From Escherichia virus TH47, in sequence record MT446416.1: a stretch of DNA of 64,000 bases; one strand, 5' to 3'. A program made the translations under genes and the position numbers. Of this stretch, positions 880 to 35,930 are shown piece after piece; positions within the stretch are counted from its first letter, which is position 1; each line of letters starts with the position of its first letter. The notes beneath the pieces were generated by a model. It was not told the origin of the DNA, did no database searches, and saw nothing but the letters and a program-made list of their open reading frames with translations.

Positions 880-907
880 ATTATACAGTACTGAATGAGT
901 TTGTCAA
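880..907 (-). promoter_or_regulatory. sigma70-type promoter (TTGACA-N16-TATAAT) with TTCAGTACTG in spacer
   Basis: Minus-strand reading gttgacaaactcattcagtactgtataat; -35 at 902-907, -10 at 880-885; upstream of gene 278..832. Confidence 0.55.
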
Positions 908-908
908 C

Positions 909-1289
909 TCAAAATAAATTCATTTCATGTGCGTATTGTGGTTCAAGATGCGATAAGTTTTTGAAGCTTTCTTTCAACTCAGCATCATCTACATACACCG
1001 TGCCTGGTACATTCCCCATAGTGAAACCTACCCACACAGTCATGTCACCAGTCCCTAAGCGTGGCATTGATAGCGAACCATCAGGTGAAACATCAAACGC
1101 TACACTGAAGTCATCAGTAACAACGTCATAACCATTTTCGAGAATAATACATCCACTATCTTTAAGCTTCTGAATGTGGATAGCAGCCTCTACAGCACGT
1201 TTGAAGTTATAGTAAGACTCTTTATCCTCAAACATTGATTGTTTAATCAGACGCTTGTTTAGCTCGGTTACTTTGTGCATTTGACGCAT
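909..1289 (-). CDS. hypothetical protein (126 aa)
   Basis: ORF tiles with neighbours on minus strand; start abuts stop of upstream gene. Confidence 0.5.
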   Translation of the reverse strand: MRQMHKVTELNKRLIKQSMFEDKESYYNFKRAVEAAIHIQKLKDSGCIILENGYDVVTDDFSVAFDVSPDGSLSMPRLGTGDMTVWVGFTMGNVPGTVYVDDAELKESFKNLSHLEPQYAHEMNLF

Positions 1290-1546
1290 TACTTATCCAT
1301 CTCCAACAGTTGTAGAATTTCATAAGAGCCTGGTGGTGCTGGATTCCTGATCTCAGGGAATTGAGTACTTTTAGGATTACCACCAGCATTAAATTCATCA
1401 AGTAATGATTCGAGTTCATTCCTATCATGAACAACAAACACGCAATATCCAGTACCTTCTTCAAGAACAGTAGTTGAACCCGCACAATCCCATACTGTAT
1501 CAATACATAATAATTCTTTAGTGTTTTTGTTACGCAATGCAAACAT
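1289..1546 (-). CDS. hypothetical protein (85 aa)
   Basis: Protein-like composition; preferred over overlapping 1243..1701 which is Cys/Trp/His-rich and junk-like. Confidence 0.45.
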   Translation of the reverse strand: MFALRNKNTKELLCIDTVWDCAGSTTVLEEGTGYCVFVVHDRNELESLLDEFNAGGNPKSTQFPEIRNPAPPGSYEILQLLEMDK

Positions 1547-1555
1547 ATATGTCTC

Positions 1556-1924
1556 CTATCGATTCGGCATATTCTTTCGTAGTCGCAAGAGAAATTCAAC
1601 CACTGACCATGTTGAAATGAAGGTAATATAAGTTGCCAAGAATCCGGTAAGAATAAATGCAACCAGCGTACTACCATTTGGTCCATCTGCTTTAATACCA
1701 ATTATACCATCAACTACAGTGAAACATGTAGCCATTAGCGTGTAGCAGACGTACAACACAAAGAAGAACTCATTCTCCATTGAAGGGTAGAAACGGTTAA
1801 ACACTTTATAAAATTTAAAGTACAGTAGGATTATACCAACAAAGACATAAAATGTAAACAGGGTTGTTATAATATATGAGATTAGGTTCAAATTATACAT
1901 ATTAACGCTCCGGTAAATTATCAC
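1556..1924 (-). CDS. small multi-pass membrane protein, tandem paralog 1 of 3
   Basis: Hydrophobic segments; C-terminus ...RLRKNMPNR resembles the ends of the next two ORFs; true start may be the internal Met at about 1900. Confidence 0.5.
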   Translation of the reverse strand: MIIYRSVNMYNLNLISYIITTLFTFYVFVGIILLYFKFYKVFNRFYPSMENEFFFVLYVCYTLMATCFTVVDGIIGIKADGPNGSTLVAFILTGFLATYITFISTWSVVEFLLRLRKNMPNR

Positions 1925-2249
1925 GTAAGGTTTTAATTCGATTATACAATTTCACTGAAACATTACCAAATATACCATATCCAAGTACTAAAATGTATGC
2001 AATAAGCATAGTAATAATTACTATAGTGCCAAAACTATAATGTACACTACTGATACCCAATGTAGTTTCAACGATTATTTGGGAAAGAGAAAGAATCAAA
2101 AGTACAACTACAATAGGATGATTTGGATACATCCTATTAAATAGTGTTTTGTACTTGAAGAAGCAAAGCACTCCACCAAATAAGAAGTAAACAATGTAAA
2201 TGCAAGCAACAGCATAGGCAAACACGTTAGTGTAATAAATCATTATCAA
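1902..2249 (-). CDS. small multi-pass membrane protein, tandem paralog 2 of 3
   Basis: Same size and topology as neighbours; C-terminus ...KTLRDNLPER. Confidence 0.5.
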   Translation of the reverse strand: MIMIYYTNVFAYAVACIYIVYFLFGGVLCFFKYKTLFNRMYPNHPIVVVLLILSLSQIIVETTLGISSVHYSFGTIVIITMLIAYILVLGYGIFGNVSVKLYNRIKTLRDNLPER

Positions 2250-2252
2250 TCC

Positions 2253-2591
2253 TTATTTTTCAGGGATATTAGAACGCCATACATCAAGGCGATGGATCAG
2301 CTCAAAAAACAACCATACTGGAAAGAAAGATATCATAACACCAAGTGATAACCCGGTCAATACCGATACCAGATTTAATTCATCAGTACTATATCCACAT
2401 ATCAGTACTTCTAATATTCCCCACGTACACGCACAGAATACCAAGAATGAAATCGGTGCATCATAATAGATACGTTCATATAAAGTAGTGTATCGGAAGA
2501 ATGCAATAATGTAGCAAAACATGAAATATACCCACATCAATGACACTACATAGAATGACACTTTATTAATTAATTCAAAATTTTGTTCCAT
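2253..2591 (-). CDS. small multi-pass membrane protein, tandem paralog 3 of 3
   Basis: Same size and topology; C-terminus ...DVWRSNIPEK. Confidence 0.5.
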   Translation of the reverse strand: MEQNFELINKVSFYVVSLMWVYFMFCYIIAFFRYTTLYERIYYDAPISFLVFCACTWGILEVLICGYSTDELNLVSVLTGLSLGVMISFFPVWLFFELIHRLDVWRSNIPEK

Positions 2592-2592
2592 T

Positions 2593-2901
2593 TTATACCT
2601 TCAAATATTCAGAAAATAATGCATGAGCTTCTTCTATATTCTTGAGATAATACATATGATATAGATTTGGTTGACCATTTTTATAACTTAAATCGAAGTA
2701 CTTTAAACTATGCACCTTCATGACAAAAACAAATAATGACTTAAAACCAATCTCACCGTACTTAATAAACAGTTCATCTAAATGAATGTAACTCTTAGTT
2801 TCAGATAATTCCTTCACATCAGCTTCAATTTCTTGTAAGCGAAGTTTACCGATTAAGTTTTCAAATGAACGCATGATGTTGTTCCTTATGCTGGTACACA
2901 A
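2593..2901 (-). CDS. hypothetical protein (102 aa)
   Basis: ORF in minus-strand gene series. Confidence 0.45.
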   Translation of the reverse strand: MCTSIRNNIMRSFENLIGKLRLQEIEADVKELSETKSYIHLDELFIKYGEIGFKSLFVFVMKVHSLKYFDLSYKNGQPNLYHMYYLKNIEEAHALFSEYLKV

Positions 2902-34631: not shown

Positions 34632-34721
34632 TGGCAGTGAGTGTGGGATTCTGACCCACGATACGCTTTCGCATATGCTACCTTAGCAGGGTAGTGATTT
34701 CAACCTCTCATCCAACTCACT
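34632..34721 (-). tRNA. tRNA-Ser (anticodon GCT), class II with long variable arm; CCA encoded; non-canonical T-loop
   Basis: Manual fold: acceptor AGTGAGT/ACTCACT (7 bp), 3-bp D-stem, anticodon stem CTACC/GGTAG with loop CTGCTAA, variable hairpin with GAAA loop, T-arm GTGGG-TCAGAAT-CCCAC, 3' GCCA. Confidence 0.55.
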
Positions 34722-34727
34722 AAATTA

Positions 34728-34756
34728 ATTATATCAGTACTCAATACTAATGTCCA
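34728..34756 (-). promoter_or_regulatory. putative promoter for tRNA-Ser (TGGACA-N17-TATAAT)
   Basis: -10 at 34728-34733 placed about 7 nt upstream of the tRNA 5' end; overlaps the 3' end of 34734..35126. Confidence 0.35.
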
Positions 34757-35126
34757 GTACTATTTTCGGAAAAAAAACCTTATCCAACACTTCAAATATT
34801 ACAGAATTTAATTCATGTGGAAACACATTTTCATATACTGTGCGTTTCTGAAATTCATCTTCTTCATCAGCACTTAGCTGGAAGGTAATGTATTGAGCAT
34901 TTATACTATTTATTATATCACGTAAAGTGTTATTTGTCCTTTTTATTTCTTCAAATGATTCAAAAACAATTTCATCGTCATTTATAAGAAATGATTCACC
35001 ATATCCATTGAAAATGCGAATACCAGGATTATCTTGACACCAGTTATTGGTATGGTCTGTCGTTAATTCTGAATTCAAAAATGATTTAAGAAACTCTTCA
35101 TACTTTGAAATGTCTTTAACACTCAT
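34734..35126 (-). CDS. FQxS-motif paralog family member (130 aa)
   Basis: C-terminal ADEEDEFQKRTVYENV. Confidence 0.5.
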   Translation of the reverse strand: MSVKDISKYEEFLKSFLNSELTTDHTNNWCQDNPGIRIFNGYGESFLINDDEIVFESFEEIKRTNNTLRDIINSINAQYITFQLSADEEDEFQKRTVYENVFPHELNSVIFEVLDKVFFPKIVLDISIEY

Positions 35127-35219
35127 ATCACCAACTTTAATTAAAAAAATGGATGGTTACGCTTTTAAACGCCGCTGTTAATTCAGCTTTATAACCACCC
35201 GTTTTAACTTGCCTTTCGG

Positions 35220-35414
35220 CTACCTTGACGTGGGGGCGTACAGGCTACTAAAAGCAACTTCTGTAAACATATTTCCACACCTTACCCTTTTAAATAAAAG
35301 TCCATCCGGTTTTCCAGTTTGGTGAAGGACTGTCACCTCTAGTTTAAACCTGCTAGTCAAGTAATAATTGCCTATCGTCCAATTATCAAACCCGTCTAGG
35401 TTAACATTCACCAC
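35220..35414 (-). CDS. uncertain small ORF (64 aa) within a GC-richer ORF-poor stretch
   Basis: ggaag SD-like sequence upstream; could instead be part of a non-coding RNA. Confidence 0.3.
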   Translation of the reverse strand: MVNVNLDGFDNWTIGNYYLTSRFKLEVTVLHQTGKPDGLLFKRVRCGNMFTEVAFSSLYAPTSR

Positions 35415-35489
35415 TTCCTAGAGTGCCAGAGATCTTGTTCTGGATTTCATCGACGTAACTTACACCATATACGTCTGATTGTGGAATTC

Positions 35490-35518
35490 ATTATATCAGT
35501 ACTGAACTATTTAGTCAA
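35490..35518 (-). promoter_or_regulatory. sigma70-type promoter (TTGACT-N17-TATAAT) with TCAGTACTG in spacer
   Basis: Minus-strand reading ttgactaaatagttcagtactgatataat; near-identical to the promoter at 35903..35930. Confidence 0.5.
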
Positions 35519-35871
35519 GAATTAATTCGCATTTTTTTGAATTTACCAATCAAGTACTTATAAAACTCATAACTGAACAATGGTTCTTGTACAGTACTCA
35601 TTTGAAAATATTCTTCTTCTGTCTTTGGTACAGGGGAAGTACCTGAAACAAAGGGATTATAATCTTCTCCTGTATAAGTAGAAACTTCAACATCAATTGA
35701 ACTAATATCTTTACGTAACGAAATGTTTAACATAACAGTTCGTTGAACAGAAGTTTCTTCATCTTCATCCCACTGTAAGTACAATCTCATTAGTTTATCC
35801 CAATTATAAAATTGGAAGTTATGTAAATCTTCAAGGTTGCGTGTTATTGCTTCTTCATATTCACTAAACAT
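35515..35871 (-). CDS. FQxS-motif paralog family member (118 aa)
   Basis: C-terminal TEEEYFQMSTVQEP. Confidence 0.5.
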   Translation of the reverse strand: MFSEYEEAITRNLEDLHNFQFYNWDKLMRLYLQWDEDEETSVQRTVMLNISLRKDISSIDVEVSTYTGEDYNPFVSGTSPVPKTEEEYFQMSTVQEPLFSYEFYKYLIGKFKKMRINS

Positions 35872-35902
35872 ATCAAGTTGCCATATAAGTTAATATACAA
35901 AC

Positions 35903-35930
35903 ATTATACAGTACTGAACTATTTAGTCAA
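35903..35930 (-). promoter_or_regulatory. sigma70-type promoter (TTGACT-N16-TATAAT) with TTCAGTACTG in spacer
   Basis: Minus-strand reading ttgactaaatagttcagtactgtataat upstream of 35515..35871. Confidence 0.5.

Follow-up and report, generated by a model that had tools for sequence, protein, structure and literature searches.

Several near-consensus sigma70 promoters of the jumbo coliphage Escherichia virus TH47 carry the same short box, TCAGTACTG, immediately upstream of the -10 hexamer. The question raised by this locus is whether that box is a promoter motif or belongs to something wider. We present here an analysis of a 64,000-nt stretch of the genome (sequence record MT446416.1; hereafter, the window), centered on the palindrome AGTACT that the box contains. 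The closest matches of the window are Asteriusvirus RaK2/121Q-like jumbo coliphages, with Ecwhy_1, EC.P1, CMSTMSU, and WPEC3 at ~95% identity. Its counterpart in 121Q lies at roughly 50-115 kb in reversed orientation, and 55 kb could be aligned at a mean identity of 83%. The window holds ~130 short genes, nearly all on the minus strand and of unknown function, together with four intact tRNA genes and a phage sigma factor. We describe, as direct observations, the promoters, the genome-wide excess of AGTACT, its origin at the DNA level, its conservation, its lineage distribution, and its fixed registers at promoters, and we then weigh what may read the word.

The window was scanned for TTGACA/TATAAT promoters, allowing at most one mismatch per hexamer and two in total. 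The sigma70-like sites that it returned numbered 51 for the coding strand and 16 for the opposite one. The sites that carry AGTACT next to a core hexamer are as follows.

880-907, minus strand: promoter TTGACA-N16-TATAAT, with AGTACT at 887-892, 1 nt upstream of the -10; upstream of the gene at 278-832.
12225-12252, minus strand: promoter TTGACAaacgttcgtAGTACTgTATAAT, upstream of the gene at 11851-12177.
16184-16211, minus strand: promoter TTGACA-N16-TATAAT, with AGTACT at 16191-16196; upstream of the gene at 15782-16090.
34728-34756, with boxes extending to 34761, minus strand: dual-box promoter TGGACAttagtattgAGTACTgaTATAAT.
35490-35518, minus strand: promoter TTGACT-N17-TATAAT, with AGTACT at 35498-35503 followed by GA, giving TGaTATAAT; upstream of the gene at 35220-35414.
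35903-35930, minus strand: promoter TTGACT-N16-TATAAT, with AGTACT at 35910-35915; a near-duplicate of the promoter at 35490, upstream of the gene at 35515-35871.
60985-61013, minus strand: promoter-like site TTGACAgtactgagtgttgcctgTAGAAT, with AGTACT at 61003-61008 overlapping the last base of the -35; upstream of a TelA-like gene.

A preliminary description of this DNA had proposed the promoters at 880, 16184, 35490, and 35903, and all four are present at those coordinates, with consensus or near-consensus hexamers and spacers of 16-17 bp. TCAGTACTG ends 0-1 nt upstream of the -10 in each, and the two copies at 35.5 and 35.9 kb are nearly identical, as had been noted, both carrying cTTGACTAAATAGTTCAGTACTG(A)TATAATG. 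The set was incomplete, since the promoters at 12225-12252 and 34728-34756 share the architecture and had been left out. In the dual-box promoter at 34728, one AGTACT (34756-34761) overlaps the first base of the -35 (TGGACA), and the second (34736-34741) lies 2 nt upstream of the -10, again giving TGaTATAAT. A tRNA cluster follows, and only 7 nt separate the end of the -10 from its first gene, tRNA-Ser (34632-34721).

Each of the six boxed promoters has a perfect TATAAT as its -10, a -35 with 0-1 mismatch, and a spacer of 16 or 17 bp, inside the 16-18 bp range of RpoD promoters. All six lie in non-coding DNA in sense orientation; the distance to the start codon is 39-101 nt, or 7 nt to the 5' end of a tRNA. 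AGTACT occupies positions -19 to -14 or -20 to -15 in 6 of the 51 coding-strand sigma70-like sites, compared with 0.25 expected (P about 3e-7); the register of the box is therefore not due to chance. The box is kept at all six promoters in 121Q, with 0-2 substitutions over the core, and the promoter at 880-907 differs from its 121Q counterpart by 2 substitutions in 52 nt. The proposal that these are strong early promoters served by host RNA polymerase is well supported by sequence, namely by hexamers, spacing, placement, and conservation in 121Q, and the boxed sites can credibly be taken as early promoters of the sigma70 type, a class that had been predicted in this clade before. RpoD-like early promoters were predicted in the equivalent region of CBB and GAP32 (PMC5259590), and in PA5oct, which is rifampicin-sensitive, RpoD-like promoters were placed around start sites from RNA-seq (PMC7318152); by analogy, the boxed promoters would work through host RNA polymerase. 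The further suggestion that some promoters need the phage sigma found neither support nor contradiction.

TG at -15/-14, the mark of an extended -10, is present at 34728 and 35490 and in sites of the form TGTGATATAAT; the four N16 promoters have TG at -14/-13 instead. TGnTATAAT occurs 27 times on the coding strand of the window and 5 times on the other. TGTGATATAAT had been reported as a second motif near tRNA-Arg and an HNH gene. It is found at both places, 1-4 nt from the positions first given, and a third copy had been missed; the plus strand of the window has none.

37107-37117, minus strand: TGTGATATAAT, an extended -10 promoter without a -35, ~10 nt upstream of tRNA-Arg.
38786-38796, minus strand: TGTGATATAAT, an extended -10 promoter upstream of the HNH endonuclease gene.
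7346-7356, minus strand: TGTGATATAAT, third copy.

The box is far more widespread than these promoters. With at most one mismatch, TCAGTACTG has 162 matches in the window and 14.9 are expected, so it is not promoter-specific. Its reading as a shared promoter motif is not supported: the promoters carry copies of a palindrome that is under selection throughout the genome, and ~90% of its copies are intragenic, with no promoter nearby. AGTACT itself is present in 156 copies, compared with 17.7 +/- 3.8 in dinucleotide-preserving shuffles, and CAGTACTG in 40 copies, compared with about 0.65 expected from base composition. Genes hold 140 AGTACT copies (89.7%; the coding fraction of the window is 89.4%), distributed 59/31/50 over the codon frames. 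When synonymous codons were shuffled with proteins and codon usage kept, genes retained 33 +/- 5.6 copies of AGTACT (140 observed) and 2.3 +/- 1.6 copies of CAGTACTG (32 observed). The excess is thus not a coding effect, because all frames and non-coding DNA are alike and the count stands 4-fold above the synonymous shuffle; codon or dipeptide bias is ruled out on the same grounds. Spacing between copies is near exponential (mean, 410 bp; coefficient of variation, 0.92), AGTACT-free gaps fit a Poisson process, and no strong position bias was seen along genes.

The flanks show a preference of the form T-T-C, AGTACT, G-A-A, which is weak, at most 0.4 bit per flank position. On the coding strand, C at -1 (42%) and G at +1 (55%) are both enriched, independently of each other. 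This independent, symmetric enrichment is what a symmetric reader of duplex DNA would be expected to leave, and a signal at the RNA level is ruled out by it. Palindromes in general are purged from the window while AGTACT is hoarded: the window lacks 29 of the 64 six-base palindromes, compared with only 12 missing from PA5oct, GCGC is found 0 times with 55 expected, and CGCG stands at 0.22x, GATC at 0.49x, and CTAG at ~0.5x. Two long perfect palindromes are built on the core.

32509-32524: TATTCAGTACTGAATA, the longest perfect palindrome on the core, intergenic.
32631-32644: ATTCAGTACTGAAT, the second long perfect palindrome, intergenic, 121 bp from the TATTCAGTACTGAATA palindrome.

Both are non-coding, with a consensus promoter (32362-32389) and tRNA-Thr downstream of them, and may bind the reader proposed below with high affinity. 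Another intergenic AGTACT, at 40745-40775 on the minus strand, sits within a terminator-like hairpin (ACCCAGTctagtACTGGGT, followed by a T run). Two HNH homing-endonuclease genes (18553-19197 and 37713-38687) and an intein (~48067-49093) contain 0 AGTACT in ~2.65 kb, with ~6.5 expected, in a comparison made post hoc. Their lack of the word fits recently arrived mobile DNA that has yet to acquire it.

AGTACT copies are held by selection at the DNA level. Among aligned AGTACT sites, 68.8% are identical in 121Q, compared with 41.9% of all hexamers and 42.8% of hexamers of the same composition, and per-base divergence between the window and 121Q is ~0.09 within AGTACT and ~0.145 in its flanks. Sites found only in the window (45) and only in 121Q (40) roughly balance, so that density rather than position appears to be maintained. 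The commonest site change, AGAACT to or from AGTACT, is a transversion and, as judged from the codons, looks non-synonymous in each reading frame. The C-to-T decay products AGTATT/AATACT make up about 7 of ~41 single-base differences and are mildly depleted in the window (0.81x). Since turnover is dominated by transversions and C-to-T change is minor, a repair-driven origin is unlikely, and a bias of the very-short-patch type is rejected.

AGTACT was also counted in other phages, with these results.

121Q (E. coli), 1-50 kb, replication and structural genes: AGTACT at 4.4x.
121Q (E. coli), 50-100 kb: AGTACT at 7.6x.
121Q (E. coli), 100-125 kb: AGTACT at 9.1x.
RaK2 (Klebsiella): 8.6x and 8.4x in two regions.
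GAP32 (Cronobacter), early region: 153 copies compared with 6.7 in shuffles; 18.3x relative to base composition.
CBB (Pectobacterium): 6.7x and 8.1x in two regions.
XbC2 (Xanthomonas), sigma region: 10.7x.
XaC1 (Xanthomonas), sigma region: 13.3x.
PA5oct (Pseudomonas), 25 kb: 1 copy, compared with 8 expected.
Vibrio phage 2.275.O, 24.6 kb: no palindrome over-represented.

Every sampled member of the sigma-bearing lineage (Asteriusvirus, Alcyoneusvirus, Mimasvirus, and the Xanthomonas phages) has an excess of 4-18x, and a homologue of the window sigma factor is found in every AGTACT-rich phage sampled. The excess tracks the sigma-bearing phage lineage and not the host group; phages of Escherichia through Xanthomonas share it, and PA5oct and the Vibrio phage do not. 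In these genomes the word is maintained about once per 160-400 bp, and G at -1 is disfavored in all samples (3-11%). No description of the excess in these phages was found in the full-text literature, subscription journals lying outside the search.

The register at promoters is also shared across genera. The first 25 kb of GAP32 contains 10 instances of AGTACT-N-TATAAT on the coding strand, 8 of them ~40 nt upstream of an annotated start codon, and the box precedes 12 of the 38 TATAAT hexamers in that region. In 9 of the 10, a second AGTACT lies 20-22 bp upstream and overlaps the first T of the -35 (AAAAGTAC-TTGCAA or -TTGACA). When 16 promoters from GAP32 and the window are aligned, AGTACT and TATAAT are the sole invariant blocks, as AGTACT-N(1-2)-TATAAT. 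In RaK2, TTGACAaataacattAGTACTgTATAATgttta precedes a tRNA-like gene; two dual-box promoters are found in 121Q; CBB and XbC2 share AAAAAGTAC-TTGACA, and CBB and 121Q share TTGAC-AGTACT, the arrangement seen in the window at 60985-61013. The dyad-symmetric word abuts or overlaps core promoter elements, at -19 to -14, at -41 to -36, or at the 3' edge of the -35. Distances between AGTACT pairs peak at 20-22 bp, with 24 pairs compared with ~7 expected in the pooled samples and 12 compared with 2.8 in GAP32 alone, a peak to which the dual-box promoters contribute much. The GAP32 boxes (AGTACT-T-TATAAT) have C at -15 followed by T at -14, which differs from the TGn of an extended -10, and that element is rejected as the whole explanation. 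A GAP32-style dual box, AGTACT-N16-AGTACT-g-TACAAT, was also found in the window at 53893-53920 (minus strand), at the very start of the gene at 53729-53923, and may be an internal promoter.

The explanation that we favor, tentatively and at a little under even confidence, is that AGTACT serves as an operator-like box. Its reader would be symmetric, probably encoded by the phage, and would occupy or mark the whole chromosome as well. Early promoters would be read by the host RNA polymerase holoenzyme as soon as the DNA enters the cell. A symmetric sequence-specific factor, most likely encoded by the phage, would recognize AGTACT as double-stranded DNA. In a subclass of early promoters it would find the box at -19 to -14, abutting the -10, and often also at -41 to -36, over the first T of the -35, so that two boxes stand about two helical turns apart on the same face of the helix. 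There it would compete with sigma regions 2-4, and these promoters would be switched off or retimed once the reader accumulates. The remaining hundreds of copies may retain the reader on phage DNA in preference to that of the host, coat or mark the chromosome, or have another genome-wide role. We infer, then, that a protein reads AGTACT, that the phage encodes it, and that it represses.

A broader version of this idea, which we hold with a shade more reserve, treats AGTACT as a lineage-wide identity word: a phage-encoded symmetric reader, either a binding protein or an enzyme of the restriction-modification type, would gate early promoters and mark or organize the chromosome. If the density in the 125 kb of 121Q sampled holds, a genome carries roughly 800 or more copies. 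Under this version selection keeps copies at synonymous positions, and an amino acid change seems to accompany many of the gains and losses. The strongest point for a binding protein is the pair of same-face boxes bracketing the -35.

A number of results weigh against a repressor-like reader. A reader of the restriction-modification type is favored most by the strict core of six bases and its weak flanks, a pattern more usual for such enzymes than for repressors. About 90% of AGTACT copies are far from any promoter, so repression cannot be the main selected function, and pairs 19-22 bp apart occur inside genes too. Pfam gave no match for ~40 early genes around the promoters, no DNA-binding domain was found in genes downstream of boxed promoters or around the sigma gene, and Pfam, PHROGs, and the contig annotations offered no candidate for a cognate binding protein. 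An XRE-type helix-turn-helix protein of CBB and GAP32, encoded beside the sigma gene in CBB, was considered as the reader, and no homologue of it is encoded in the window. The literature yielded no RNA-seq or start-site data for this phage clade.

Several other accounts of the word were weighed. AGTACT might be the target of a phage DNA methyltransferase, the mark itself being what matters in telling parental from new DNA or phage from host DNA. The state of the boxes at the -35 and -10, fully methylated or hemimethylated, would then set the timing of early promoters, as Dam sites do at some promoters of E. coli, and the dense sites could serve strand discrimination or protection. This seems unlikely overall. 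It draws strength from the way information is confined to six strictly palindromic bases, the flanks being weak, as in sites of restriction-modification enzymes; from GATC at 0.49x, which leaves host Dam fewer targets; and from the density of AGTACT, which is of the same order as that of GATC in E. coli. A C5 methyltransferase is encoded in the window and a small S-adenosylmethionine (SAM)-dependent methyltransferase in XbC2 and XaC1, and adenine and cytosine methylases are encoded by CBB, GAP32, and RaK2 (PMC5259590, PMC3622015). RaK2 DNA is stated, from bisulfite data not displayed, to carry CpG methylation (PMC3622015), but AGTACT has no CpG. There is also no sign of 5-methylcytosine deamination among the differences from 121Q, protective marking would leave the 7- to 18-fold over-representation unexplained, and no methyltransferase of known AGTACT specificity was identified in this analysis. 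The C5 enzyme of the window is itself an unlikely writer, given its probable CpG-containing target (PMC3622015) and the missing C-to-T decay signature. We think it quite unlikely that the box is instead a promoter part read by RNA polymerase, whether as a favorable spacer or extended -10 element for host sigma70 or as a long extended -10 by which the phage sigma would have a promoter class of its own; this enlarges on the preliminary description. The fixed register to the -10 in 16 promoters of two genera, the canonical TGn that the box supplies in the N17 versions, and the sigma homologue in every AGTACT-rich phage sampled (with regions 2 and 3 in the window copy) would all fit. Beyond the GAP32 boxes, which supply CT and not TG, such a role does not account for the same word on either edge of the -35 or for the ~90% of copies within genes without a -10; a palindromic core with symmetric flanks is unexpected for a monomeric sigma factor, consensus -35 and -10 hexamers alone suffice for sigma70, and the Vibrio phage has a sigma-like protein yet no excess.

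It is very unlikely that AGTACT is the site of a phage nuclease or nickase whose nicks or breaks seed recombination-dependent replication or load a clamp for late transcription, with cutting at early promoters ending early transcription. The window encodes a nuclease that was considered as the reader, a 194-amino-acid early protein (24326-24910, minus strand) with an invariant PD-(D/E)XK motif and a second, His-rich motif, SPYGFNHxHSHxVG. It has a restriction-endonuclease fold, for which I-Ssp6803I, DpnI, and Hjc are the nearest matches. It is found across the AGTACT-rich clade at 64-71% identity between genera and has no match in PA5oct. Its fold fits Hjc Holliday-junction resolvases equally well, however; a 33%-identical homologue occurs in the Vibrio phage, which has no over-represented palindrome, and no link between the enzyme and AGTACT was found. 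A Holliday-junction resolvase family was predicted in group 2 jumbo phages by Iyer et al. (PMC7824862), and on sequence and fold comparison the 194-amino-acid protein is most simply taken as a resolvase and is probably the one missing from the clade. A host protein such as the nucleoid-occlusion factor SlmA, through which the phage would manipulate cell division or another host function, is highly improbable. The SlmA binding site, GTGAGTACTCAC, has the AGTACT core in common (PMC3020112), and the hosts of the clade are mostly enterobacteria. The SlmA half-site needs G1, T2, a purine at 3, A4, and G5 (PMC3020112), but GTRAGYRCTYAC has 0 matches in the window, position 3 has G less often than any other base (3-11% in each genus), and position 1 favors T over G. 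SlmA is thus rejected on its flank requirements (T-T-C is found, not G-T-R) and because phages recorded from Xanthomonas show the same excess. Hardly any weight falls on the absence of function, with the word a by-product of codon or dipeptide usage, very-short-patch-type mutation or repair bias, or chance. The 8-mer counts do follow from 7-mer counts in a Markov model, so that the signal is hierarchical, and one-mismatch neighbors are mildly enriched. Against this stand the equal occupancy of frames and non-coding DNA, the greater conservation of sites than of matched hexamers, the fixed promoter registers, the lack of a depleted precursor pool (AGTATT/AATACT at 0.81x) with a transversion as the commonest change, and the AGTACT-free HNH genes and intein. 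Two resemblances to known words were also rejected: the second half-site of a LexA box (TACTGTATA...) is absent from the promoter sequences on reading, and Chi is present in 0 and 1 copies on the two strands of the window.

The annotation of other genes in the window yielded the following features, including the sigma70-family factor reported earlier, which Pfam bears out.

19281-20246, minus strand: phage sigma70-family factor, with Pfam Sigma70_r2 and Sigma70_r3 (regions 2 and 3).
37024-37097: tRNA-Arg, gene confirmed.
37713-38687: HNH endonuclease gene, confirmed.

A look-up of the sigma protein returned no record. The sigma factor is 98-99% identical to those of WPEC3, WPEC5, and BF17; with 121Q, PBECO4, and Sharanji the figure falls to just 59%. 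Identity in the flanking DNA, by comparison, is 83-95%, and two divergent sigma alleles therefore circulate in the genus. The C5 cytosine DNA methyltransferase gene (47438-49327, minus strand) contains an intein with Hint and LAGLIDADG domains, inserted after about residue 77; the 121Q homologue (gp91, 286 amino acids) is without it. The small SAM-dependent methyltransferases of XbC2 and XaC1 (172-180 amino acids; locus L010, 49-588, and locus L013, 701-1219) are encoded close to a virion-protein/nuclease gene pair and have no homologue in the E. coli phage loci examined. A tRNA-Met(CAU) gene (34478-34173, minus strand) is split in its anticodon loop (CTCAT-intron-AA) by a 231-nt group I intron at ~34440-34210 (Rfam RF00028, 100.5 bits), with a 5' exon ending in U and an intron ending in G; 121Q has an intact tRNA-Met at this position. 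The split gene is absent from standard ARAGORN output and is called as tRNA-Arg(acg) with the intron option, the Met reading coming from the loop sequence. Finally, a stretch free of open reading frames at ~17950-18550 (minus strand) contains nucleotide blocks ~79-90% conserved in CBB, XbC2, and RaK2, where the adjoining proteins are far more diverged. Counterparts lie in the relatives' loci L009 (14303-14699), L010 (14515-14915), and L005 (6861-7277). A 150-nt core folds with 29 pairs, 7 of which are backed by compensatory changes, and Rfam gave no match to the stretch even at E <= 1. The stretch is a candidate for a new structured RNA in phages of the RaK2 type.

The normal course for a phage genome is to lose short palindromes, and AGTACT, held here in excess, must bring a benefit that covers the cost of constraint at hundreds of positions. 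Its set positions beside the -35 and -10 offer an experimental handle and predict a new regulator or DNA mark for the switch from early to later expression. AGTACT-bearing jumbo phages are now being isolated for therapy, and almost all of their early genes are of unknown function. Annotation is affected, because motif finders will keep reporting AGTACT as a promoter motif, and recoding or synthesis that ignores the word may impair engineered genomes. If AGTACT is indeed an identity word, these phages would discriminate phage from host DNA by sequence, without base replacement.

Comparison with known systems places the promoters and the word differently. The boxed promoters resemble the RpoD-like promoters of GAP32, CBB, and PA5oct in being TTGACA-N16-18-TATAAT sites in sense orientation within a region of short genes of unknown function that includes a phage sigma gene (PMC5259590, PMC7318152). 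The published accounts of those promoters give the two hexamers and an UP-like element and no AGTACT boxes. As in LexA boxes, the operators of lambda and P22, and tetO, a palindrome abuts or overlaps the -35 and -10, and pairs lie about two turns apart on one face; unlike them, the AGTACT core is 6 bp with weak flanks, is present at ~156 copies per 64 kb, is mostly intragenic, and has no known cognate repressor. SPO1 TF1 and phi29 p6 are phage DNA-binding proteins that cover the phage genome, prefer phage DNA, and repress early promoters, TF1 recognizing hydroxymethyluracil DNA and p6 bendability. The proposed AGTACT reader would be alike in role; neither TF1 nor p6 recognizes an over-represented word, and the binding protein here is hypothetical. 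Chi, DNA uptake sequences, KOPS, and GATC share with AGTACT hundreds of weakly selected copies in all frames, turnover at a held density, and lineage specificity. Chi, uptake sequences, and KOPS are asymmetric and strand-skewed, with an excess far smaller than that of AGTACT, whereas AGTACT is a palindrome in a palindrome-purging viral genome; no known machine that reads AGTACT was identified. AGTACT is also the ScaI site, an identical strict six-base palindrome, and phages normally avoid restriction sites; in contrast to a type II restriction-modification site, it is enriched here 7- to 18-fold, and no cognate enzyme pair was found. SlmA (GTGAGTACTCAC) and Noc sites are likewise palindromes scattered over a chromosome and read by dimers, with an AGTACT core (PMC3020112), but the flanks differ from those found here, the window has 0 matches, the density of AGTACT is orders of magnitude higher, and the excess extends to Xanthomonas-recorded phages. 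Set beside these systems, the promoters themselves are ordinary, and what is new is the AGTACT word.

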